64,000 bases of DNA from an uncultured Spirochaetota bacterium (GCA_964521865.1 CAZFTJ010000016.1:20302-84301), one strand, 5' to 3'; positions 7,607-50,643 are shown, counted from the first letter of the stretch. Notes: generated by a model not told the origin, from the sequence alone. Numbers and translations: made by a program.

Positions 7607-8530
7607 ATGAAAATACTCGGCAAGATTACACATAACTGGCACATAAAGCTCATTTCTCTTGCCCTTGCTTCCATAGTATGGATCTACGTGAACAGCCTGC
7701 AGGAAAAGGAGAAGTTTCTCTCCGTGCCCCTGTCGGTCGTCCATGTGCCGGAGGACTACCTCATTGCCAGTGAAATTCCGCAAACCGTGAAAGTTGTTCT
7801 CAGGGGAAGTGAAGAGAAGCTCGCGCTTGTGAATGAGGAAAAAATTGCCGCTGTTATCGATCTGAAAGAAAGCGGCGCCGGGCAGGTAAAAAAAAGAGTT
7901 AAGATCGATGAGAGCACAGTCCCGCAGAATGTCTCCATCAAGGAAATAACTCCCCGGACAATTGACATACTGCTTGAAAAAGCTCTCACAAAAAGCGTCA
8001 AGGTCGTTCCGGTGATTGTAGCAGACCTTCCATACGGGTACAACCTGGAAGATGTCGTTATCGAGCCCGACACGGTCGAGATACGGGGACCGGAGTCGTA
8101 CCTTAAAACCGTTGAGTCCGTATATACGCGGGAGATAAATCTGAAAAACGTAACGGAAACGACTATTTTCAAGGTAAACATCGATACATCGAACCCCAGG
8201 ATTACCCTGGGCGAGGTGCAGAGTGTGAACGTTCGGGTTGTGGTAAAAGAGGAATTTGTGGTAAAAAAGGTTGCAGGAATTCCCGTCTATGCTATGAATT
8301 TAAAGGATAATCTTACCTTTTCCATAAACGATATAGAGGTGTCTGTTCTTCTGAAGTTGCCGAAGAGAAAGGAGAAGGATTTTACGGAAGATCTGGTGTA
8401 TGTCTATGTTGACTGCGAGGATATAGAAAAACCCGGAGTGTACCATTTGCCGCTGCTGTTCAGATCCGAACGTGAAGATATAACGCTCGTGAAGATCGAG
8501 CCTGAAACAGTGCCTGTTGAAATCAAGTGA
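7607..8530 (+). CDS. cdaR: CdaR/YbbR family regulator
   Basis: KLISLALASIVWIYV anchor, YbbR-type beta repeats, follows cdaA. Confidence 0.88.
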   Translation: MKILGKITHNWHIKLISLALASIVWIYVNSLQEKEKFLSVPLSVVHVPEDYLIASEIPQTVKVVLRGSEEKLALVNEEKIAAVIDLKESGAGQVKKRVKIDESTVPQNVSIKEITPRTIDILLEKALTKSVKVVPVIVADLPYGYNLEDVVIEPDTVEIRGPESYLKTVESVYTREINLKNVTETTIFKVNIDTSNPRITLGEVQSVNVRVVVKEEFVVKKVAGIPVYAMNLKDNLTFSINDIEVSVLLKLPKRKEKDFTEDLVYVYVDCEDIEKPGVYHLPLLFRSEREDITLVKIEPETVPVEIK

Positions 8531-38540: not shown

Positions 38541-39758
38541 CTATGAATTTGCATTATTAGAATTATAATACTCAATCAGAATATCCAACACCTCTGGACG
38601 GCTAAATTGGGCGGGTGGCTTGCGTCCCTCTGAAAGCATCTTGCGTAATTCTGTGCCACTGATGAGCAGGTGATCTTCATCAGAATGGGGGCATGTATTT
38701 TTTGAACACATCTGTTCACATGTATTACACCAGAATGTCCAATCGATTTTAAGCGGTTTAATAAATAGTTCATTTGGAGAAAATTGATCAAATATTTCTT
38801 GTGCATCAAACGGACCGTAGTAATTCCCGACTCCAGCATGATCCCTGCCAATTATGATGTGACTGCAGCCGAAATTCTGACGTATAATTGCATGTAATAC
38901 CGCCTCCCTGGGACCTCCATACCTCATTTCCATGGGATATACCTTTAGGATGACTTTATTTTTCGGGTAGTATTTTTCGAGAAGCGTATTATAGCATTTT
39001 ATTCTTACTTCAGCGGGAATATCTCCTTCTTTTAACTTCCCAACGATTGGATGAATAAAAAGACCATCATACATTTCCAATACGATTTTTGTAATATATT
39101 CATGAGATCGATGGATGGGATTTCTTGTCTGAAATGCGACTATAGTCTCCCAACGTCGTAATTGGAACAGCCTCCGTGTTTCGATTGGCCGGGCATATTG
39201 AGGAAATTTTACAGGATATTTTCCCTCATGAAAAACACGTACTTCTCCTCCAATATAAACATCCCCCTTTTCATAGATCTTTTTCACACCTGGATGTTTT
39301 TCATCATCTGTTCCGAATATTTTTAAAGCCTCTTCTTCTTTATCATAAGAAAATTTTTCCCTCACCTGCATGGTACCAATAATGTTTTCCTTTTCAGGTC
39401 CTATGAGTGCAATTTTATCATTTTTCCTAATCAAATCCGCTTCCTCTTTTGAAATTGAAAGAGTAATGGGCATTGGCCATAGGGTACCATTGTTCAGGTG
39501 CATAGTATCGAGAACGCAACGGTAATCTGATTTAATCATAAATCCGTTTAAAGGACTAAATGCGCCGATTCCGAGCATGATTAGATCTGACGTTTCAAGT
39601 GTGGTTAATTTGATTTTTTTTAATGTATGTGCTTCATTGATCAGAATCTTTTGCTCATCTTCTTCATTCACAAGAAGTTCTTGGAAAATACCCCCACCAT
39701 GAAAAGGAACTATCATGTGATTATTATTAAGCTGATTTCTATTTTTTTTATTATTCAA
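38541..39758 (-). CDS. sat: Sulfate adenylyltransferase (ATP sulfurylase)
   Basis: FQTRNPIHRSHE, MRYGGPREA..HAIIRQNFGCSH.I.GRDHAG. Confidence 0.95.
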   Translation of the reverse strand: MNNKKNRNQLNNNHMIVPFHGGGIFQELLVNEEDEQKILINEAHTLKKIKLTTLETSDLIMLGIGAFSPLNGFMIKSDYRCVLDTMHLNNGTLWPMPITLSISKEEADLIRKNDKIALIGPEKENIIGTMQVREKFSYDKEEEALKIFGTDDEKHPGVKKIYEKGDVYIGGEVRVFHEGKYPVKFPQYARPIETRRLFQLRRWETIVAFQTRNPIHRSHEYITKIVLEMYDGLFIHPIVGKLKEGDIPAEVRIKCYNTLLEKYYPKNKVILKVYPMEMRYGGPREAVLHAIIRQNFGCSHIIIGRDHAGVGNYYGPFDAQEIFDQFSPNELFIKPLKIDWTFWCNTCEQMCSKNTCPHSDEDHLLISGTELRKMLSEGRKPPAQFSRPEVLDILIEYYNSNNANS

Positions 39759-39807
39759 TGATCAATTCCTATTTATAATTATTTAAAAGCTATCTTATAT
39801 ATTTCCT

Positions 39808-41067
39808 TTATTCAAGAGACTCCCTCCCCTCAATTGCCTTGTTGAAAAATTCGGCAATATTTTTTATATTTGCACTTCTTGGATTGTATTCAGACATAGA
39901 GTACATCTCCTCAGCACGTCGTAATATATATTGAGCAAGTTTAGTAATGTCTTTTTTTGAAATACCGAAATCTTTTAAGCTTGTGGGTATGCCAATATCC
40001 TCTAGTAATTCGAATGTTTTTACTACAACCTTTTTCGAAGATTCTTTTGCATTCGATCCTGATATATCAGCACCCATTGCCTCAGCAATTTTTATTAATT
40101 TTTTTCTGGCATATTCATTCGAGAAATTATACCAAAATACGTATGGTAATAAAACACCGCAGGTTTCACCGTGTAACATACCATGCAGAGCTGAGATGCC
40201 TTCTGAGGCTACATGTCCAATCAAAGCCGGTCCTGCAATCCAAGGATAACTTATTACTATACCTCCTATTGTTGCTGCTAGGGACATATTCCATCGTGCT
40301 ATCATATCATTTCCCTGCTTACAGGCTCTTCTCAGGTTATTAGCTATCAGCTCTATTGCTTTCAAAGCCAAAGCATCAGATATTGGATTGGCCTGGAGGG
40401 AGAGAGCAGCTTCTGCGACATGACTCATTGCATCCATTCCACAGCATGCCGTTTGTTTTTTCGGTAAACCGGTTATTAGATTCGGATCGATTATTGCTGC
40501 ATCTGCCATGACTGAATCCCCCGCCATCCAGGTTTTTATTAATCCAATGCTTTCATCCTTTACAATAACAACGGCAAAATTTGAGCATTCACTGCCTGTT
40601 CCTGAAGTTGTCGGTACCATTATTTTTGGTTTTGATTTTCCCAAAGGCTTATCAGTAGGACAGAGATAGTCTTCTACTTCACCGGAAGTATTCGCCATTA
40701 CTGCTGCTATTTTTGTGATATCCATAACAGAACCACCGCCGATTCTAATGAAAAGGCCATAATTACCTTTTCTTGCTTTTTCGATAGTTTGATGTACTTC
40801 TGCAATATCTGGTTCATGTGGCGCCGTACTAACAATGTCAATGTTAAAACCTGTATTTTTCAGGGATTTTGTCGGTTGTTCGATCAATCCCAGCTTTTCA
40901 ATATTGTTGTCTGTAACCAGCATAATGTTCTTATTTTCCGCCAATTCATGTGCCAGATTATTCAATTTACTGATGATGTTAATACCCATAAAAATTTTTG
41001 GTACATTACTATACTCATCCATTCTATTCAGTATATTTTCACCCATCCTCCTATCTTGATCACACAT
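39808..41067 (-). CDS. Iron-containing alcohol dehydrogenase
   Basis: IGGGSVMD, PTTSGTGSE, GMDAMSH.AE, HG...HG metal-binding motif. Confidence 0.92.
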   Translation of the reverse strand: MCDQDRRMGENILNRMDEYSNVPKIFMGINIISKLNNLAHELAENKNIMLVTDNNIEKLGLIEQPTKSLKNTGFNIDIVSTAPHEPDIAEVHQTIEKARKGNYGLFIRIGGGSVMDITKIAAVMANTSGEVEDYLCPTDKPLGKSKPKIMVPTTSGTGSECSNFAVVIVKDESIGLIKTWMAGDSVMADAAIIDPNLITGLPKKQTACCGMDAMSHVAEAALSLQANPISDALALKAIELIANNLRRACKQGNDMIARWNMSLAATIGGIVISYPWIAGPALIGHVASEGISALHGMLHGETCGVLLPYVFWYNFSNEYARKKLIKIAEAMGADISGSNAKESSKKVVVKTFELLEDIGIPTSLKDFGISKKDITKLAQYILRRAEEMYSMSEYNPRSANIKNIAEFFNKAIEGRESLE

Positions 41068-41111
41068 TTATCCGCACTCCTTATCTAAATAATTTACCCA
41101 ACCCGAGTTGT

Positions 41112-42443
41112 TTACCATGAATGATGCAACATGTTCAATGTTTCTTCAAAGGCCTCAAGGATTTTATTGTAGTCATCATCCGTATGTTTAATTGAAAGAT
41201 GAATTGTCTCTGTCGCATCCCCTCCCACCATTATTACTCCCTTGTTCAGCATGGTGATGAAAAATTTATGCCATAATGAACGATCTGCTGTTGCCATCGT
41301 TCTGTAGTCCACTACCTTTCTGTCTGTAAACACCATTCCGCCTATGGCGCCCAGATGATTTACCTGAGCAGCCACTCCTGTTTTTTTAATAATATCCTTC
41401 ATAGCTTCAAACATATAATCTGCCTTTTTTATTAATGTTTTTGTTACTTCCGGGGTAAGAACAGCTCTTAGAGTGGTGAGGCAGGCGGTTATACCGACAG
41501 GATTGGCGTTGTAAGTGCCGTAATGTGCAACAGATCCTTCGAACTGTTTCATTATTTCTCGTTTTCCACCGAAGGCTGCTATTGAAAACCCCCCACCGAT
41601 GGCTTTTGAAAGTGTAATCAGGTCCGGCATAACATTGAAAAATTCAGAGGCACCACCGTATGAAACCCTGCATCCTGTTATTATTTCATCGAAAATAAGA
41701 ACAATATTTTCCCTTTCTGTAATCTCTCTTACTTGCTTTAAATACCCTTCCTTGGGAAGTATAACACTCGCCTTGCCCATTACGGGTTCCATGATAAAGG
41801 AGGCGATTTCACCCTCATGCTTGCGGACTGCATATTCAAGAGCCTCAATATCATTAAAAGGGACAACAACAATAGTTTTCCCCACGCATTCAGGGATTCC
41901 TTCAGATATTTTAACAGTACTTGGTAATCGAGCAGGCCCTCTTTCTTCCTTGCTTGAATGTATGCTCTAGAGAGCATAGTCCTGAGGGCCATGATACCCG
42001 CCTTCCAGTTTAATGATTTTATTCTTACCCGTATATCCCCTTGCCGCTCTGATCGCATGCATAGTCACTTCTATTCCGGAATTGCCAAACCGAACCATTT
42101 CCATAAAAGGAAATCTCTTCTGTAGCTCTTTAATAGCAAGAAATTGTTTTTCATAAGGCATTGCATAGGTGCTCCCTCTGCCAAGCTGTTCTTTTACCGC
42201 TTCCATTATCTGAGGGTGGGCATGACCAACGATCAAGGGGCCATATGCACACTGGCAATCAATATATTCATTACCATCGATGTCCCATCCTTTGGAGCCC
42301 TTACCCTCTTTTATAAAAAACGGATATGGAGAAAAGGCTCTCACATTACTCCCGACCCCCGATGGCATCACCTCTTTCATCTTTTCCCAGGCAATTTTCG
42401 ATTTTTGATGTTTTTGAATATATTCCTCTTCATAATCTTTCAT
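41112..42443 (-). CDS. Class III PLP aminotransferase (glutamate-1-semialdehyde aminomutase-like) interrupted by one in-frame TAG; pseudogene or read-through
   Basis: ORFs 41967-42455 and 41112-41885 are in the same frame: ...GYHGPQDYAL*SIHSSKEERGPARLP...GIPECVGKT. DEIITG and DLITLSKAIGGG are intact. Confidence 0.85.
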
Positions 42444-42483
42444 TTGTATTAACAACCTTCTTTATAGAGAGTTATTTTGTAAT

Positions 42484-42531
42484 AAAAATCCGAGAAGGGC
42501 AGCATGGCTATACTGACCCTTCCGGATTTTT
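42484..42531. terminator. Stem-loop between the sulfotransferase and aminotransferase genes
   Basis: AAAAATCCGAGAAGGGCAG...CTGACCCTTCCGGATTTTT with A/T tracts on both sides. Confidence 0.55.
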
Positions 42532-42594
42532 CAAAATATTCGTTACTCAGTCATAATGTTTGGTTATTTTATTTTTTATCTACCGATGGACACC

Positions 42595-43332
42595 TCACTT
42601 TCCTCCAATTCTATTTTCATGCATCAGCTTATAAAATGGGAGATGGTAGTTGTAGTACTCTCTGAGATGCGGTTTGTCATCAAGGGTGATCTCGAACTTC
42701 TCCATATTTTTCACAATCCCACTGCTCTTTGCCGCATCGGTGTGCCATTCTTTCCATGAATCCCATTCTGATTTATGACCCGGTTGCCATGTTAGCGATT
42801 CAGGTAAAAATTCGATGCTTAACGCCTCACAGTAGGCTTTGACGACCCTCTCAGGATCGTCCTCCAGATCATCAGCATCAATGACTGCAGGAGTCTTTCC
42901 CGTCAATTTCTTCACCTTATCAAAGATTTTCCACTGTAGCTCGAAACCGATTTCCACAGAAGTGACTTCGGGATTTACTGTGTAATGTGAAAGTATTGTT
43001 TTTTCTGGGTCGCGTATTAGAAAAGTATTTTCTATTGAATTAAGGAATGTATCATCATCTATTATATGATCAAAGCAGTGAAAGCACATATCCTTGAAGT
43101 ATACAAGAGCCTTCTCAGCTTCAGAGAGAATGTAATTTTTAATATCCGGGTAAGTCTGTGGATGATTCGGATCTTGGTGCCCATACGGGATTGGAGCACG
43201 TTTTTCATGGAAGTAAAAGAGATAGGAGAATGGTTCATGAAGAATTGTAAAATCTCCCCTCTCCATGAATATCCTTTCCATAGCGGTTGAAAGTGACCTA
43301 GGATGGACCCATAGTGCTATAGCCTTGTTCAT
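42595..43332 (-). CDS. Sulfotransferase-family protein (Sulfotransfer_5-like)
   Basis: WVHPRSLSTA P-loop-like motif, LHEPF, FKDM, FLIRDP, VIDADDL..DP, W...W..WH...SSG. Confidence 0.8.
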   Translation of the reverse strand: MNKAIALWVHPRSLSTAMERIFMERGDFTILHEPFSYLFYFHEKRAPIPYGHQDPNHPQTYPDIKNYILSEAEKALVYFKDMCFHCFDHIIDDDTFLNSIENTFLIRDPEKTILSHYTVNPEVTSVEIGFELQWKIFDKVKKLTGKTPAVIDADDLEDDPERVVKAYCEALSIEFLPESLTWQPGHKSEWDSWKEWHTDAAKSSGIVKNMEKFEITLDDKPHLREYYNYHLPFYKLMHENRIGGK

Positions 43333-43414
43333 AATTGATTCTCCTTAAATATGTAGTGTTATTTTAGGATATTCTATCTAAACATCTGGTTAGTAAGGCA
43401 TGTTTTTACGGTGC

Positions 43415-43588
43415 TTATGGAGGATCAGATTCTATCCAGTTGATTGTTAAATGGGAGTATTGTTTAAAAAACCATAACGGAACATATCTTATTTTTACGA
43501 AAAGAAGTAGTCTATTGAATTCGCAACTTAAAGTTTTATCAGTTAACGGGAGAAAAAATCTGCGTTTACTTTTTTCCCTTATCATCAT
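43415..43588 (-). CDS. Small ORF, putative leader peptide B (up to 57 aa, ends LWFFKQYSHLTINWIESDPP*)
   Basis: Intergenic, same strand as the operon, ATG after AAGGAAG, homologous to 47924-48013. Start uncertain. Confidence 0.65.
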   Translation of the reverse strand: MMIREKSKRRFFLPLTDKTLSCEFNRLLLFVKIRYVPLWFFKQYSHLTINWIESDPP

Positions 43589-43629
43589 CCAACTTCCTTC
43601 ATTACTGTGTAGTCTTAATATGTACAATA

Positions 43630-44505
43630 CTAACCAGCCCTCTTTCGACTCATAATAACCAGACCGACAAGAGCCAGAAGTGAAGTACCCCCCATGAGTG
43701 CAACACTTATAGCATTAATCTGCGGGGTTATCTGAAAACGAAGCTTGGAAAAAAGATATATAGGTATAGTCGGTGTATGACCTATGAGAAATAGAGTTAT
43801 TGGAAAATTCTCAAAAGAGAGGAGAAACGATATAACAGCCGCACCTAAGAGTGATGGAATTAAATATGGTATCGTCACCTGGAAAACAGCCCCCCAGCGG
43901 CTTGAACCGAGATCCATTGCTGCCTCTTCCAATTCTATGGGAAATTTCCTTAAGCGTGCACTGATAATAAGTGTTCCCATGGTACCGATAAAACTGAACT
44001 GTCCCAGAACCACAGGTAAAAACCCTGGTTGCAGCATCTTAACGATTGGCATTGCAAGCCCCGGCCCTAACAACGACCTGAAAAGACCGATCAACCCGTG
44101 AAAAAAAACCAGTATTGCGATGCCGGTAATAATACCAGGAATAACGAGTGGTGCGATTATAGCAAAGTGAAACAAACGTTTTCCAAGGAATTTTTCACGT
44201 ACAAAGAGAAATGAGCTCAGTGTACCAGCAGTCACACTCAAAATACTTACCAACAGAGCTACCCTTAGACTCATACCCAAAGCCGTGATCATTACTGTGT
44301 CATTAAGAACTCCGGTTCTTTTATCGTTTAAACTATAAAACCAGTCCAGGGTAAATCCACGCCATGGAAGAGAGGGAGATTCTGAATCGTTGAAGGCAAG
44401 AATTCCGTTTATTATCAATGGAACGAAAAGGAACAGTAAGAATGCCGATATGTAGACAATATATATAATTTTTAATGTGGAAGAACTCCCAGGTTTTTTC
44501 CTCAT
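43630..44505 (-). CDS. Polyamine-type ABC transporter permease (PotC-like)
   Basis: FTLDWF, LEEAAMDLG EAA loop, TPQINAIS. Confidence 0.9.
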   Translation of the reverse strand: MRKKPGSSSTLKIIYIVYISAFLLFLFVPLIINGILAFNDSESPSLPWRGFTLDWFYSLNDKRTGVLNDTVMITALGMSLRVALLVSILSVTAGTLSSFLFVREKFLGKRLFHFAIIAPLVIPGIITGIAILVFFHGLIGLFRSLLGPGLAMPIVKMLQPGFLPVVLGQFSFIGTMGTLIISARLRKFPIELEEAAMDLGSSRWGAVFQVTIPYLIPSLLGAAVISFLLSFENFPITLFLIGHTPTIPIYLFSKLRFQITPQINAISVALMGGTSLLALVGLVIMSRKRAG

Positions 44506-45419
44506 TTAATGATCTCCGTAAGTTTCTGGTTGGTGAGTTTTAACCCGAGGAATACAATGATACAGCTTAAAAGAAGAAGTAGGAAACCAAAGGCCGCCCC
44601 CTGGTTCCAGTTCCATACAACATTGAATTGGTCGTATATAATTTCAGTAAAATAGAGGCTGTTTTTCCCTCCTAGAATAGTAACTGTAAGATAATTACCA
44701 AGGGTCATCATAAATACAATGATACAGCCGGAAGTTATACCGGGAATACTGTGTGGCCAGATCACCTCCCAAAGTATTGTCCAGCGGTTTGCCCCGAGGT
44801 CTTGTGCCGCCTCGATCAAGGAATCATCAAAACCTTCAAGAACGCCATAGATTGGCATTAGCATGAATAACATAGAAGCGTATACAAGGCCTACGAAGAT
44901 TGCGTAATCGTTATAGAGCATTTCAATAGGTTGTTTTAAAATACCAATCTTAATAAATATCCAGTTTAACACACCACTCTCACGCAACATTATCATCCAG
45001 CTGTACGTCCTGACAAGTTCGCTTATCCAGAAGGGAAGGATTATCATAAGCAATAAAGCAAGCTTGCTACGACCTTTTGCAACTTTTGCAAGAAAAAATG
45101 CTGTTGGAAAACAGATGCACAGCGCCATGATGGTTGTTCCAATTGAATACATGGTGGTTCTCAAAAAAACGTGCCAGTATAAAGATTCAGAAAAAAATTT
45201 TATATAATTTCCGAAATAAATTCCCTCTTCAGGATGCCGATTTTTTAAGAATGAAATGATAAAAAGCTGTAGCTGTGGAATTGCAATAAGGAAAAGAACC
45301 CAAAAAATAAGCGGAATAAAGCAAACGATTTTAAACCAGTTTATCTTTTGGAAGGAAATAGTAACTTTTTTTACTACTATGAATATAATATTATGCGATT
45401 GTATATCCTCTTTTACCAT
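44502..45419 (-). CDS. Polyamine-type ABC transporter permease (PotB-like)
   Basis: LPFWISELVRTYSW, LIEAAQDLGA, WNQGAA. Confidence 0.9.
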   Translation of the reverse strand: MVKEDIQSHNIIFIVVKKVTISFQKINWFKIVCFIPLIFWVLFLIAIPQLQLFIISFLKNRHPEEGIYFGNYIKFFSESLYWHVFLRTTMYSIGTTIMALCICFPTAFFLAKVAKGRSKLALLLMIILPFWISELVRTYSWMIMLRESGVLNWIFIKIGILKQPIEMLYNDYAIFVGLVYASMLFMLMPIYGVLEGFDDSLIEAAQDLGANRWTILWEVIWPHSIPGITSGCIIVFMMTLGNYLTVTILGGKNSLYFTEIIYDQFNVVWNWNQGAAFGFLLLLLSCIIVFLGLKLTNQKLTEIIK

Positions 45420-46561
45420 TATTCTCCCTCTCCGCCTACACTCATATCAATATCTTTTAATTGTTTTGTGGAGAAACAAAGGGTGTCGCTAATTTTCCAA
45501 GAAATATTTACTCTATCATGTGGTGATAACAAGGAGATGTGTGAAGCTTGTTGCACAAATATTTTTATTAGTAAATTTTCAGTTACTTCAACTATATATG
45601 TTGTTTTTGAGCCTTCAAAGATTGCATTTTTTACTAAACCATTATAGGACTGATAATCCTTTGTAAGACTATTCTCAGGAGGATTTATCCGAATATTCTC
45701 AGGACGTATAAAAACGAGAGCATCGTTACTATTGAATAGATCTGGCTGGGGTATTCCTTTTACCTTAATTGAACCCACTTGTACAGTAACGATATTAGCA
45801 GCCTTTGAAAGAATCTTTCCTAGCAAACGGTTAGAATCTCCAACAAAAGCAGCAACAAAAGAAGTCGCCGGTTTATTAAAAAGATCATAAGGGCTTCCAA
45901 TTTGTTCAAGCTTTCCGCTCAGCATGACTGCAATATTGTCGCTCATTGTCATGGCTTCACCCTGATCATGGGTTATATAGATAAAAGTAGTTCCCACCCG
46001 TTCTTGTAGGTTCTTCAACTCTATTTTCATATGTTCGCGAAGTTTGAGGTCAAGTGCTCCAAGAGGTTCATCAAGGAGCAATACTGTGGGGTCTAAAACC
46101 AGACAACGGGCAATGGCAACCCTCTGCATTTGCCCACCGGAAAGTTGATGAATTGCTTTGTTTCCAAAACCAGAAAGCCCCACCTTGTTAAGTATTTGTA
46201 ATACACGTTTATTTATTTCATTTTTTGTAACTTTTCTCCTTTTCAAACCAAAGGCGATGTTTTCATAAACGGATTTTAAGGGGAAAAGTGCAAGGTGCTG
46301 AAATACGAGATTCGTCCGCCTCCTATTTGGAGGAATATTATTTACTTTTTCTCCGCCTATATACACATCTCCTTCATCAGGGGTCTCAAACCCTGAAATC
46401 ATCCTTAAGAGTGTGGTTTTACCACATCCACTTGGACCGAGAATTGAGAAGAAATTACCTTTTGATACAGAAAAGGAGACATTTTGAACTGCTGTGAATG
46501 TTCCGAATTTTTTGGTTAAGTTATGTACTGAAATGTCTATTTTATCATTGCGGTTATCCAT
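45419..46561 (-). CDS. Polyamine-type ABC transporter ATPase (PotA-like)
   Basis: GPSGCGKTT, LSGGQMQRVAIAR, LLLDEP, YITHDQ, TOBE-like tail. Confidence 0.93.
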   Translation of the reverse strand: MDNRNDKIDISVHNLTKKFGTFTAVQNVSFSVSKGNFFSILGPSGCGKTTLLRMISGFETPDEGDVYIGGEKVNNIPPNRRRTNLVFQHLALFPLKSVYENIAFGLKRRKVTKNEINKRVLQILNKVGLSGFGNKAIHQLSGGQMQRVAIARCLVLDPTVLLLDEPLGALDLKLREHMKIELKNLQERVGTTFIYITHDQGEAMTMSDNIAVMLSGKLEQIGSPYDLFNKPATSFVAAFVGDSNRLLGKILSKAANIVTVQVGSIKVKGIPQPDLFNSNDALVFIRPENIRINPPENSLTKDYQSYNGLVKNAIFEGSKTTYIVEVTENLLIKIFVQQASHISLLSPHDRVNISWKISDTLCFSTKQLKDIDMSVGGEGE

Positions 46562-46605
46562 GGGACTTCCTCTTGTTATGCATGAATACGAACTAATTAA
46601 TGATT

Positions 46606-46627
46606 AGGGGAGACATATGCCTCCCCT
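46606..46627 (-). terminator. Hairpin between the binding-protein and ATPase genes
   Basis: AGGGGAG-N8-CTCCCCT. Confidence 0.4.
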
Positions 46628-46640
46628 TTATAAAAGTTAT

Positions 46641-47777
46641 TTATTTAGCAACTTTCAATTTTTCTTCCATTTCAGAGTTTATTTCGTTTATGTAACTAAC
46701 AAGTGGGGCATACCAGTTGATATTATCGACTGCTTCTGGTGGATAAGCATCGTTAATTACTTTCTGACGGTCTTCAGGTAAAAGGTTTACTGCTCCTTTT
46801 ACCGCAGACATATACCCGGTTTTATCCATGATCTGTGCACCTTTTTCCTCTGTTAACATCCAGTTGATCCATGTATATGCTGCATCGAGATTTTTTGCTC
46901 CTGCTGATATTGTGTACGTGTCAATCCAGCCGAGAGCCCCTTCTTTCGGACAAAAAAATCTAATGTGTGGGTTGGTTTTATTTAGAAGAAATCCCGTTCC
47001 ATCCCAACCCTGGGAAATCCAGCACTCTTCTGTTGTCATTAAATCAAGCTGTTCCTGTCTTGTTGTCCAATATGTTTTAATGCATGGTTTCCTTGAGATT
47101 AGAAAATCGAGGATCTTTTCCATCATTTTTCGATATGATGATTCATTGCCGTAATTACCGAAAAAATCAATACCCATTCCGTATGCTGCACCAGCAAATG
47201 TAAACCATGTATACCTGGTTGTTACTTTTCCACAGTACTTTTCATCGTATAGATCCATAAATGAATATGAATCTTTTTTTATACGATCAGTATTAACAAT
47301 CAGGCCGACAGTTCCCCAGGTGTAGGGGATAGAGTATTGTTTTCCATCAATGGTGGTGGCCTCTTTTGTCCCCCTGGCTAATGAAGGAATAATATTGTTT
47401 ATAACTTTAATTTTTGAAAAATCAATTGGCTGATAAATACCGAAAGCCTTCTGAGCATCAGCAACCTGGTTGAAGGTAGGCTGGACAAGATCATATCCTT
47501 CTCCTTTTGTAGCTCTCATTTTGCTTATGCACTCGCCATTTTCAGCAAAATAAGTTACATGGACATTAATACCGGTTTCATTTTCAAAATCAGCTTTCAT
47601 TTTCTCCGGTACATATCCCTCCCATGTAAGGATTGAGAGCTCTTTCGCTTTTTCTTTTTCACCACCTGCAAACCCATAAAAAGCGCTCCCGAAAAGAACT
47701 AATAAAACGATAAAAAAAAGAATACTCTGCCAAATCCATTTCCTGTGTTTCATCTGTAAAAAATTTGTTTTGTTCAT
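46641..47777 (-). CDS. Polyamine-type ABC transporter substrate-binding protein (PotD-like)
   Basis: Signal/TM segment, TWEGY, PYTWGTVG, PKEGALGWID, AYTWINW. Confidence 0.9.
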   Translation of the reverse strand: MNKTNFLQMKHRKWIWQSILFFIVLLVLFGSAFYGFAGGEKEKAKELSILTWEGYVPEKMKADFENETGINVHVTYFAENGECISKMRATKGEGYDLVQPTFNQVADAQKAFGIYQPIDFSKIKVINNIIPSLARGTKEATTIDGKQYSIPYTWGTVGLIVNTDRIKKDSYSFMDLYDEKYCGKVTTRYTWFTFAGAAYGMGIDFFGNYGNESSYRKMMEKILDFLISRKPCIKTYWTTRQEQLDLMTTEECWISQGWDGTGFLLNKTNPHIRFFCPKEGALGWIDTYTISAGAKNLDAAYTWINWMLTEEKGAQIMDKTGYMSAVKGAVNLLPEDRQKVINDAYPPEAVDNINWYAPLVSYINEINSEMEEKLKVAK

Positions 47778-47804
47778 TGCTTTCTCCTTATAAATAATTT
47801 TTAG

Positions 47805-47837
47805 CGTTAATACTATTTTATAAAAATAGTATTAACG
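47805..47837. repeat. Perfect 15-bp inverted repeat just upstream of the binding-protein RBS
   Basis: CGTTAATACTATTTT-ATA-AAAATAGTATTAACG. Confidence 0.85.
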
Positions 47838-47923
47838 ATTTTTCATATAATTTTTATCTGGTAGTAGGACCTGATTAGTACTTTTTTGTAGTTACATAAA
47901 TTAAGCAGGAATGTAAAATGGAG

Positions 47924-48013
47924 TTACTTCTTCCACGGTGGATCTGATTCAATCCAATCAATAGTAAGGAAGTCATAGTGTTGGAGAGACCATAGTAGGC
48001 GGGACTTTATCAT
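47924..48013 (-). CDS. Small ORF, putative leader peptide A (29 aa, MIKSRLLWSLQHYDFLTIDWIESDPPWKK)
   Basis: RBS AAGGGAG 8 nt before ATG; lies between the promoter and the potD-like gene; homologous to 43415-43588. Confidence 0.75.
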   Translation of the reverse strand: MIKSRLLWSLQHYDFLTIDWIESDPPWKK

Positions 48014-48062
48014 TGTTACATCTCCCTTTCTTTGTCATTTATCAGGAGATGAAAAACATTGT

Positions 48063-48102
48063 GTTGTAGTACAACTGTACACCATTACGAAAATTTGTCA
48101 AT
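48063..48102 (-). promoter_or_regulatory. sigma70-type promoter with a palindromic operator near +1
   Basis: Minus strand TTGACA-N16-TACAGT overlapping the palindrome GTTGTA-C-TACAAC (48063-48075). Confidence 0.6.
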
Positions 48103-48322
48103 AAAAAAATATAATATTTTTTCTTTTTTCAACTTGTTGTACGTAGAAAAATGTGAATAAGTACCATATTTTAAGTCTTAATTGATAATAGATAGTGCCT
48201 ACAGGACCTAAAACTATAATTGTTTATATATTTAGAAAAACACATTTAATATATTGAAAATATTATGAATGCTTTATATATTATAGACTTTGAACTCCTT
48301 AGGATGCACTGTCTACTGACAT

Positions 48323-49054
48323 TTAATAATTAACCAATAAAAATACACCTGTAGCAAGTAATATACTACTGATAGCAGCTCTAAATCCTTTTTCGTTAAT
48401 TCTGAAATGTACTGATTTTCCAATGAATGCTCCAAAAAAAGAAGCAGGAAGCATAAAAAGGCTTATTTTTATAATATCAATATTTATTAATTTTAAATAT
48501 ATATAGGGTATAATCCTGACCGTATCGACTATAAGGAAATATGATAACATTGTTGCTCGTAAAATATGTTTTGCAGTAAGCTGGTTTTCAAGATAAATAG
48601 CAATTGGTGGACCCGCGGTACCAAAGAGACCACCTAAAACTCCGCCCAGTACACCAGATAGATAACCAAAAAACGCAGGCCACTTTTTTCTTGTAGTTTG
48701 TCCTTTTAACAAATTAAGAATTATTCTCAAAGCAAATAGTATGGTGAATCCACCGAAAACTCGTTTTAAAACATCACTATTGAAGTTGACAAGGATGAAA
48801 GATCCAACAGCTACTCCAATGATGCTTATCGGAAGAACAATTAAAAGGGATCGTTTGTCGATATTTTTTCTTGCTTGAATAGTAACAACGATTCCCCCAG
48901 CAATTTCAGTTATCGCAGTGATTACGACAACAGTTTTAATCTCAAATATCAATAGTAATAAGGGAGTCATAACAAGAGCAGAGCCAAATCCTGTAAGTCC
49001 ACGTATAAAAAGGCCTATAAAACCAATGATTGAAGCAAATATGATTTGAAGCAT
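48323..49054 (-). CDS. Sulfite exporter TauE/SafE (TSUP) family protein
   Basis: RGLTGFGSAL, GGLFGTAGPP, multi-pass membrane protein. Confidence 0.88.
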   Translation of the reverse strand: MLQIIFASIIGFIGLFIRGLTGFGSALVMTPLLLLIFEIKTVVVITAITEIAGGIVVTIQARKNIDKRSLLIVLPISIIGVAVGSFILVNFNSDVLKRVFGGFTILFALRIILNLLKGQTTRKKWPAFFGYLSGVLGGVLGGLFGTAGPPIAIYLENQLTAKHILRATMLSYFLIVDTVRIIPYIYLKLINIDIIKISLFMLPASFFGAFIGKSVHFRINEKGFRAAISSILLATGVFLLVNY

Positions 49055-49617: not shown

Positions 49618-50643
49618 ATGAAATCGGCATGGGTTACAGGTAGAAACAGAATAGAGATCCGCGAGCAGGACATTTCCCATCCCGGGCCGGGAGAGGTGCT
49701 GGTTAAAATCAAGGCCTGCGGGATATGCGGCACCGACCTGCACTTCTACCGTGACTATCCCTACGGAAAACCGATCCCCCTCGGGCACGAGGTATCCGGT
49801 ATTGTCGTGGATTTTGGACCATCGGTCACGGACCTTAAAGAGGGAGCCGCTGTCGTTGTACAGAATCATGTCATATGCGGGAGGTGCGCATCCTGTCTCA
49901 ACGGCGAGTGGAACCGCTGTCTGAACATACAAACATATATGAACGACAGGGCCGGGATGGCTGAATACCTGAGAGTGCCCCGTGAAATGGTGCTGCCTTT
50001 CGAGTCTCTCGATTTCGTCCGGGCTGCGGTTGCGGAACCGGTGACTGTGGCGCTCGACCTCATGAAACAGGCCGATCTGAACATCTATCAGGATGTGCTC
50101 GTTTCGGGCCCGGGGATCATCGGGCTCGTCTGTGTGCGGATCGCAAAGCTGTCCGGAGCCGGAAAGGTTGCCGTTCTGGGGCGGGCGAAAAAATCACCGC
50201 GGGGGAGAAAACGTATGGAGACTGCCCGCCGTATGGGAGCGGACCGGGTGTACGATACAGATAAACCGGGATGGAAAGAGGAGGTCAAGAGTGATTTTCC
50301 CCGCGGATTCCAGAGAATAATCGTTACTTCTCCGCCGTCGAGCATACCCGATACCCTGGACCTTGCCTCTTTCGGAGCATGGGTGGTATATAACGGAATC
50401 AGCTTCTCCAAGGAAACGGTAACATTCAACGCAAACAGCTTTCATTTCAGGAAGCTCAGGCTCATCGCCTCCCACGCCATACCGAACTGGGGCTTTCCCA
50501 TGGCCTTCGAACTGATCAAAGATAAACAGGTCGATGCCGAGCAACTGGTTACCCACACCTTCCTCTTTCCTCATGTGGAAGATGCGGTTAAAGCAGCTTC
50601 CGCCCGGGAGCTCGAGGTGATCAAGGTAGTCGTTACCTTCTGA
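49618..50643 (+). CDS. Zinc-dependent (GroES-like) polyol/sugar dehydrogenase
   Basis: CGICGTDLH, GHE, CGRCASC...C, GPGIIG. Confidence 0.92.
   Translation: MKSAWVTGRNRIEIREQDISHPGPGEVLVKIKACGICGTDLHFYRDYPYGKPIPLGHEVSGIVVDFGPSVTDLKEGAAVVVQNHVICGRCASCLNGEWNRCLNIQTYMNDRAGMAEYLRVPREMVLPFESLDFVRAAVAEPVTVALDLMKQADLNIYQDVLVSGPGIIGLVCVRIAKLSGAGKVAVLGRAKKSPRGRKRMETARRMGADRVYDTDKPGWKEEVKSDFPRGFQRIIVTSPPSSIPDTLDLASFGAWVVYNGISFSKETVTFNANSFHFRKLRLIASHAIPNWGFPMAFELIKDKQVDAEQLVTHTFLFPHVEDAVKAASARELEVIKVVVTF

Follow-up and report, generated by a model that had tools for sequence, protein, structure and literature searches.

We analysed a 64,000-nucleotide stretch of DNA from an uncultured Spirochaetota bacterium (GCA_964521865.1 CAZFTJ010000016.1:20302-84301; hereafter the window, with positions counted from its first letter), and in it two small, unannotated open reading frames (ORFs), peptides A and B, that lie at two positions of one operon and end in, or close to, the motif WIESDPP. 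The operon is encoded on the minus strand in this order: a TauE/SafE-family anion exporter (48323-49054, upstream of the peptide A leader), peptide A (47924-48013), a PotD/PotF-like binding protein (46641-47777), an ABC ATPase (45419-46561), two permeases (44502-45419 and 43630-44505), peptide B (43415-43588), a Sulfotransfer_5 protein (42595-43332), a HemL-like class-III aminotransferase (41112-42455), an Fe-alcohol dehydrogenase (Fe-ADH, 39808-41067) and an ATP sulfurylase (38541-39758). These assignments come from Pfam and NCBIfam (Pfam for TauE) and, for the binding protein, also from the closest solved structures, which are putrescine/spermidine-binding proteins. The block from binding protein to second permease (43630-47777) is a PotD/PotF-like ABC importer.

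Peptide A, which defines what we call the A-type, has 29 residues (MIKSRLLWSLQHYDFLTIDWIESDPPWKK, then stop) and carries GGGAG 8 nt 5' of its ATG. Codon alignment and substitution statistics delimit in it a conserved core of 21 codons (47936-47998, minus strand) that ends in Pro-Pro; the last Pro codon is 47936-47938 and the next codon, 47933-47935, encodes Trp. Peptide B, of the B-type, has 57 residues when read from its ATG (...RYVPLWFFKQYSHLTINWIESDPP, then stop; C-terminal end ...PLWFFKQYSHLTINWIESDPP) and lies in the gap behind the second permease gene, which stops at 43630, and ahead of the Sulfotransfer_5 gene, which starts at 43332. Read from a TTG at 43627, 2 nt past the permease stop, the frame is open too. 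A readthrough or fusion product with the preceding permease was considered and ruled out, since the frames differ in the window and in the related locus L006. The 21-codon core of peptide B (43418-43480, minus strand) also ends in Pro-Pro, with the stop codon TAA (43415-43417) immediately next to it, and a spacer of 82 nt (43333-43414) leads from this stop to the sulfotransferase start.

The two peptides are clearly related: 13 of their 21 C-terminal residues are identical, and 9 of the 11 identical residues with degenerate codons are encoded by different synonymous codons. Back-translated, WIESDPP matches the window at two places; 100 shuffles predict 0.00. The similarity between A and B is neither due to chance nor to conservation at the DNA level. 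The original prediction, made from the sequence alone, had described the two peptides, these same counts and a conservation acting on the protein; the coordinates on the minus strand, the translations and the counts all proved exact, and the protein-level conservation is borne out by the orthologues, in which substitutions fall overwhelmingly at third codon positions.

We recovered related loci from metagenomes through homologues of the sulfotransferase and of the binding protein, and through a scan for the exact DNA pattern. In every recovered locus of this operon type that covers the two gaps, the peptides are present at the same two positions, and the motif was found, as the original prediction had anticipated, in the homologous loci L001-3, L006-8, L092-97 and L102. 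The family amounts to 8 distinct copies in about four lineages. The A-type always follows a TTGACA-containing region and precedes the binding-protein gene, and the B-type lies about 72-82 nt 5' of the sulfotransferase start (75-85 nt from Pro-Pro to ATG). Both are seen in L092-97 (binding protein 81% and sulfotransferase 80% identical to those of the window), with an A-type peptide (MKYIPPPWFLNHYDFLTIDWIESDPPWKVL, then stop) between TauE and the binding-protein gene and a B-type peptide (...IPFWFFHRYSKSTIDWIESDPP, then stop) between permease and sulfotransferase. L008 has an A-type peptide (MNYIPPPWFLNHYAFLTIDWIESDPPWEFPQSNSSSSLV, then stop) after TauE, its B-type position being outside the covered DNA, and shares with L092-97 the order TauE, peptide A, binding protein. 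Conversely, L001-3, L006 and L007 carry B-type variants and their A-type position is outside the covered DNA; the B-type orthologues of these loci and of L092-97 end in ...IPFWFFHRY[SA]KSTIDWIESDPP before the stop.

The arrangement is different in L102 (sulfotransferase 76% identical; region 59-640), where a single leader 5' of the sulfotransferase contains an A-type copy (MKIFFLPWFFSHYAFIIIDWIESDPPGLLPA, then stop; 169-264) and a B-type copy (MLWLKAQYYWFLKKYLLDTINWIESDPP, then stop; 472-561) in tandem, and ABC transporter genes do not separate the two. Either the other lineages gained transporter genes between their two leaders, or L102 lost them.

Elsewhere we did not find the peptide in 80 GTDB loci with sulfotransferases at most 63% identical, in the paralogous contexts L004 and L005, in L103 and L104 (sulfotransferases 70% and 67% identical), or near the closest binding-protein homologues of other operon types (L098-101). 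The latter homologues (74% and 64% identical) are encoded last in operons of the order ATPase, permease, permease, binding protein, next to genes for Dimeth_Pyl (dimethylamine methyltransferase-like), Aminotran_3 and aldehyde:ferredoxin oxidoreductase, a hint that this family of transporters serves small (methylated) amines and not classical polyamines. The exact DNA pattern for I[DN]WIESDPP has no match in 185,579 GTDB species genomes and 6 matches in JGI metagenomes. Three of these six, in L009-11 (...YEDINWIESDPPCSG...; e.g., L011 4219-4244, ...LLQYEDINWIESDPPCSGQ...), have neither the remaining core residues nor a start or stop nearby, and no gene of the operon accompanies them; they are probably chance occurrences in unrelated DNA. 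The family is much narrower than the original prediction implied: the motif recurs in loci of the same operon type, is missing at more than 80 Sulfotransfer_5 homologues and at the nearest PotD-like ones, and has so far a narrow distribution, in about four uncultured lineages.

Protein databases were equally silent. Neither peptide has a homologue among 5.8 billion protein clusters, a match in Pfam-A (E<=1) or a match in NCBIfam (E<=0.001), and a literature search for the motif gave nothing. A profile search of 1.84 billion representatives returned five matches, all of them long, unrelated repeat proteins, none bearing the motif as a domain. One of these resemblances, to a haloarchaeal-type repeat ('YDALTIVWEESDPAG') in P0244, covers 10 of 14 residues, and we judged it a chance match, given the 2.4e11 residues searched and the repeat-inflated score. 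In this protein of 582 aa, 'EYDALTIVWEESDPAGLY' occurs four times and shares 10 of 14 residues with the YDFLTIDWIESDPP segment, a likeness that we regard as coincidental.

The comparison of the 8 copies reveals where selection acts. Counting from the final Pro as 0, the invariant residues are W(-18), Y(-13), I(-8) and [DN](-7), followed by WIESDPP, and the consensus of the core, about 21 residues long, is [PL]xW[FS][FL]xxYxxx[TI]I[DN]WIESDPP. In its last 9 codons, I[DN]WIESDPP, the amino acids are invariant apart from the D/N alternation, and variation affects 8 of 9 third positions but 1 of the 18 first and second ones (Fisher p=3.5e-5); for Ser and for the final Pro, all four codons of the TCN and CCN boxes are each in use among the copies. 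Over the 21 codons, the proportion of synonymous differences (pS) is 0.7-1.1, i.e., synonymous sites are saturated, and that of nonsynonymous differences (pN) is 0.02-0.33. The 35 codons 5' of the core in the B-type are nearly neutral (pN/pS 0.5-1.6, vs 0.06 in the core), and the extensions N-terminal to the core vary in length between about 6 and 36 residues. Conservation then breaks off at Pro-Pro. In the B-type, PP is followed by a stop (TAA or TGA) in 4 of 4 distinct sequences; in the A-type, it is followed by Trp (three lineages) or Gly (L102) and by unrelated tails of 2-12 residues, which read KK, KVL or EFPQSNSSSSLV beyond PPW, L102 having GLLPA after PP. All copies have an ATG or GTG start, with a Shine-Dalgarno (SD)-like sequence or a start 2-6 nt past the preceding stop. 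Because variation is confined to third positions across the 8 copies, conservation of the DNA itself and neutral decay are both excluded. The peptides are under strong selection at the amino-acid level, synteny is kept in several lineages, and conservation does not extend past the DPP site.

In the A-type peptides of L092 (~8025-8036) and L008, residues 4-8, immediately ahead of the core, form a further polyproline run, IPPPW; peptide A of the window has SRLLW at this place.

What kind of element ends so abruptly? The anatomy of the peptides, with a C-terminal core of the length of the exit tunnel, a free N-terminus and an abrupt end at a difficult pair of P-site and A-site codons, matches that of nascent-chain arrest peptides. 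It is most likely, judging from the sequences, that they are a new family of ribosome-pausing control peptides. On balance we favour the view that both ORFs are translated, cis-acting leader peptides of a single, previously undescribed arrest family and that they regulate the genes downstream. We infer from the sequences that the peptides are translated and that ribosomes pause on them, as well as a dependence on a ligand and a route by which the pause is coupled to expression.

In the mechanism that we propose, the last residues, about 21 of them, would act inside the ribosomal exit tunnel and cause a pause or arrest with the final Pro in the P site. For peptide A, the P site would be occupied by Pro codon 47936-47938 and the A site by Trp codon 47933-47935; with Trp or Gly in the A site, A-type peptides would undergo an elongation arrest like that of Proteus vulgaris TnaC. 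For peptide B, the pause would occur at termination, since a stop codon would occupy the A site, as in the termination arrest of Escherichia coli TnaC. The arrested ribosome would set the expression of what follows: downstream of A, the ABC importer genes, and downstream of B, those for the sulfotransferase and ATP sulfurylase. Most likely, as we judge by elimination and by analogy, the transcript would remain covered or coupled and so escape premature, Rho-type termination or decay within the C-rich, unstructured spacer that follows. A small molecule connected with the operon would probably tune the arrest. Of all the steps this one is the least secure, and it is suggested by the conservation of at least 10 residues upstream of DPP, beyond the needs of a plain polyproline pause. 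In its most specific form, which is tentative and which we find rather doubtful, the 21-residue WIESDPP core and the exit tunnel would together bind the transported amine or its metabolite, the same sensor being used twice, in an elongation-arrest mode (PP-Trp/Gly) before the importer and in a termination-arrest mode (PP-stop) before the sulfotransferase and ATP sulfurylase. If so, one ligand would independently set two control points in a single operon.

The closest parallel is TnaC, in which W12, D16, I19 and P24 are conserved, arrest takes place on peptidyl-tRNA-Pro, and a Rho-utilization (rut) site beside the stop is hidden by the arrested ribosome (PMC10941005). TnaC has a termination form in E. 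coli and an elongation form in P. vulgaris (Cruz-Vera 2009, ref. 17 in PMC3902921), and these parallel our B-type and A-type. TnaC is a short ORF between a promoter and catabolic or transport genes; likewise, the A-type is a short ORF between a promoter-like site and the first transporter gene, the B-type ends in PP-stop, and a few key residues are spread over the last 13-19 positions (an aromatic residue, Asp, an Ile five before the final Pro, and the final Pro itself). However, no sequence relationship is detectable, nor is there a Pfam or NCBIfam match. The register differs as well: W, D and I of TnaC lie 12, 8 and 5 residues before the final Pro, whereas here Tyr lies at 13, D/N at 7 and Ile at 5, so that only Ile and Pro coincide, and the peptides described here have additional Trp residues at 6 and 18 and a Pro-Pro end. 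They also occur as two copies on two segments of one operon, the genes downstream encode an amine-type importer and a sulfotransferase, and the metagenomic genomes concerned are Desulfobacterales-like. Because the residue register differs and no profile matches, we regard the peptides as an analogue of TnaC, not as a member of its family.

Other arrest systems share fewer features. SpeFL, the ornithine-sensing leader peptide of speF-potE, regulates by blocking Rho (bioRxiv 10.1101/604074); it resembles our peptides in being placed 5' of genes of amine metabolism and transport and in using the nascent chain and the tunnel as the proposed sensor, but its sequence and arrest site are unrelated and it has no counterpart of the second, intercistronic copy. 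SecM, MifM and ErmCL also have a conserved C-terminal arrest segment that ends in Pro and a variable N-terminal part. They differ in their mode of coupling, given that the footprint modelled here opens no downstream ribosome-binding site (RBS) in 7 loci and that 75-288 nt separate the arrest site from the next start. Picornavirus 2A 'StopGo' sequences (D[VI]ExNPGP) act on eukaryotic ribosomes, where the peptide is released without a stop codon. IESDPP recalls VESNPGP of the foot-and-mouth disease virus (FMDV) 2A sequence, also at the end of a nascent segment of about 20 residues and with Pro as the acceptor; this is a resemblance of six residues that may be coincidental, and we claim no homology.

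Rfam has no match at E<=1 in window positions 43200-48400, including both peptide spacers, and a single, chance-level match inside a coding region in L092 7700-13000. Since the leaders have no Rfam match, no riboswitch or other Rfam element would otherwise explain the regulation. The spacer sequences are not conserved between lineages. On the operon strand, we found no intrinsic-terminator-like site between the peptides and the next gene. There is no run of codons either, Trp codons being dispersed and other residues equally conserved, so that the peptides do not have the features of trpL, hisL and pheL attenuators, in which a run of codons for the regulating amino acid is combined with alternative terminator and antiterminator hairpins and a U-tract. 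All 10 copies have 2 to 8 more C than G in the 60 nt after Pro-Pro. This is weakly consistent with a rut-like site next to the arrest site, as in the tna operon (PMC10941005), and with shielding from Rho.

Several of our results weigh against a leader-peptide function. A 30-nt ribosome footprint placed at Pro-Pro shifts the unpaired probability of the downstream RBS by at most 0.02 in 7 of 7 loci, and in the same thermodynamic model the stall position ranks mid-range among all footprint positions. Unmasking of the RBS, as in SecM- or Erm-type regulation, is thus not supported by the model, and the commonest coupling mechanism lacks support, because the footprint leaves RBS accessibility nearly unchanged. 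The folds of the leaders are not clearly more stable than those of shuffled sequences (z = -0.8 to -2.4), and the excess of C over G is modest, at the 62nd-93rd percentile of the respective locus. A palindrome in the spacer behind peptide A (47805-47837, described below) is terminator-like on the opposite (+) strand only, the operon strand lacking a clean U-tract. The tandem small ORFs directly 5' of a modifying enzyme in L102 also resemble a cluster for a peptide substrate. Finally, about four lineages are too few for covariation or for a robust dN/dS. The sensor role put forward in the original prediction therefore stands in part: a cis-acting nascent-chain element with two control points is the best fit to the data, its suggestion that an amine or polyamine ligand, or EF-P status, is sensed is conjectural, and a readout by RBS unmasking is unsupported in the 7 loci.

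Could the pause be constitutive, without any ligand? The peptides might report the status of elongation factor P (EF-P), Pro-tRNA or release factors, or they might maintain coupling, mRNA stability or the stoichiometry of the operon segments. DPP, PPW, PPG and PPP are strong EF-P-dependent pause contexts (PMC4739656), and Hayes 2002, as cited in PMC7246954, is given there as the source for C-terminal Pro impairing or slowing termination. Such contexts are present in all copies, as DPPW (peptide A of the window, L092 and L008), DPPG (first copy of L102) or DPP-stop (all B-type peptides), and DPPW, DPPG and PP-stop would by themselves suffice for a pause (PMC4739656; PMC7246954). The additional IPPPW of two A-type copies points the same way, and the sequence as such allows no inference of a ligand. 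Yet about 3-4 residues suffice for a polyproline pause, and conservation here reaches much further, W(-18), Y(-13) and TI[DN]WIES being kept as well across saturated synonymous divergence. In addition, the PP-stop of the B-type poses a problem of termination, not of peptide-bond formation. Because conservation extends beyond DPP, we suspect specific tunnel contacts like those that form the ligand pockets of TnaC (PMC10941005) and SpeFL (bioRxiv 10.1101/604074), and we consider a purely constitutive pause unlikely. More improbable still in our view is that the peptides act in trans, either as Tyr-sulfated, RaxX-like substrates of the sulfotransferase (with the ATP sulfurylase supplying activated sulfate) or as small accessory or regulatory proteins of the transporter. 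Shared with RaxX/RaxST is a small gene for a Tyr-containing peptide beside genes for a sulfotransferase and sulfate activation. The Tyr is invariant in 8 of 8 copies, every peptide locus that extends far enough has a Sulfotransfer_5 gene and, where covered, an ATP sulfurylase gene, tandem peptide genes directly 5' of the enzyme, as in L102, are a common layout of precursor genes, and conservation of the amino acids would fit a mature product equally well. But the sulfotransferase belongs to another family than RaxST, and this family does not need the peptide, because its homologues (39-70% identity) occur without a nearby peptide in more than 80 other loci. The operon has no gene for a protease (or peptidase-exporter, as in the RaxX system), a peptide exporter or a recognition domain, and its ABC system is a PotD/PotF-type importer. 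No copy has a signal-peptide-like N-terminus, and the context of the Tyr (HYD, HYA, QYS, RYS, RYA, KYL) lacks a consistent acidic character. Nor would one expect a free peptide to tolerate 6-36 unconserved N-terminal and 0-12 unconserved C-terminal residues while its conservation ends at PP. The RaxX-like alternative offered by the original prediction retains the adjoining sulfotransferase and the invariant Tyr, and loses ground with the absence of a peptidase or exporter and with an enzyme that is widely free of the peptide; we rate it the less likely of the two roles.

We find it highly improbable that the ORFs are non-functional remnants or chance sequences, be it fragments of a larger gene or copies of a repeated DNA element such as an operator or the end of a mobile element. 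The operon does lie in an island of low G+C, the motif has a weak GGAT...ATCC symmetry, and there is no annotated homologue. The third-position-only variation of the 8 copies (p=3.5e-5) effectively refutes this explanation, frame, start codon and PP end are kept in about four lineages, and none of the 1.84 billion representatives is a larger protein bearing the motif. We rejected in particular the reading of the motif as a DNA palindrome or operator: its symmetry is broken where Asp is encoded by GAC (L006, L008), and it varies synonymously.

If leader peptides these are, they would add to a small class. Ligand-sensing arrest peptides are few, TnaC and SpeFL being the main examples, and each has informed how the tunnel recognises small molecules. 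The present family has no relative in sequence and offers clean evolutionary evidence for a function borne by the peptide, and the presence of a termination and an elongation form in one operon would allow a direct, side-by-side comparison of the two mechanisms. It also marks a pathway of amine import and sulfation in Desulfobacterales-like bacteria as one that may be tightly regulated, and its inducer would provide a handle on the substrate. If the peptides were instead sulfated products, they would represent a new class of peptide natural products.

The leader of peptide A contains further candidate elements. Upstream of it lies a promoter-like site, TTGACA-16-TACAGT (48074-48101, minus strand; sigma-70-like match 10/12), which has the best sigma-70-like score on the operon strand in the region, and a TTGACA hexamer is found at a comparable distance 5' of the A-type peptide in L092, L008 and L102. 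Sigma-70-like matches in the region overall are not more frequent than in shuffled sequences. Sequence and fold also suggest a hairpin (48019-48051, minus strand) in which CATCTCC (48051-48045) would pair as a CUCC-type anti-SD with GGAGATG (48025-48019), the SD of peptide A. In L092 (~8000-8035) and L008 (minus strand, ~870-905), the possible partner of this SD is instead the IPPP-encoding stretch downstream of it (CCCUCCUCC). Pairings of this kind hint at a gate on the translation of the leader peptide itself. Between peptide A and the binding-protein gene, the spacer (47778-47923, minus strand) contains the perfect 15-bp AT-rich palindrome mentioned above (CGTTAATACTATTTT-ATA-AAAATAGTATTAACG, 47805-47837), 15 nt 5' of the binding-protein SD. 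It could be an attenuator or pause hairpin, or an operator for a protein; the L092 spacer has a different, imperfect AT-rich hairpin with GC clamps.

The G+C content of the operon (38541-49054) is 37.5% (33% in TauE), vs 48-52% in the flanks and 55% in the adjoining Zn-ADH gene (49618-50643). This low value relative to the flanks suggests that the operon is an island, probably gained horizontally. The orthologous operon of L092 is much closer to its flanks (43.9% vs 46-48%). For the Sulfotransfer_5 protein, neither papers nor solved structures gave anything informative on function, and a look-up of the exact protein of the window returned no record. The aminotransferase gene is a single continuous frame broken by one in-frame TAG (41967-41969, minus strand), at a position where the L097 homologue has Trp (TGG). 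This TAG could be a nonsense mutation in a pseudogene, a sequencing error or a recoded codon; decoding of amber codons is conceivable in this group because the related loci L098 and L099 carry split Dimeth_Pyl (pyrrolysine-type methyltransferase) genes.

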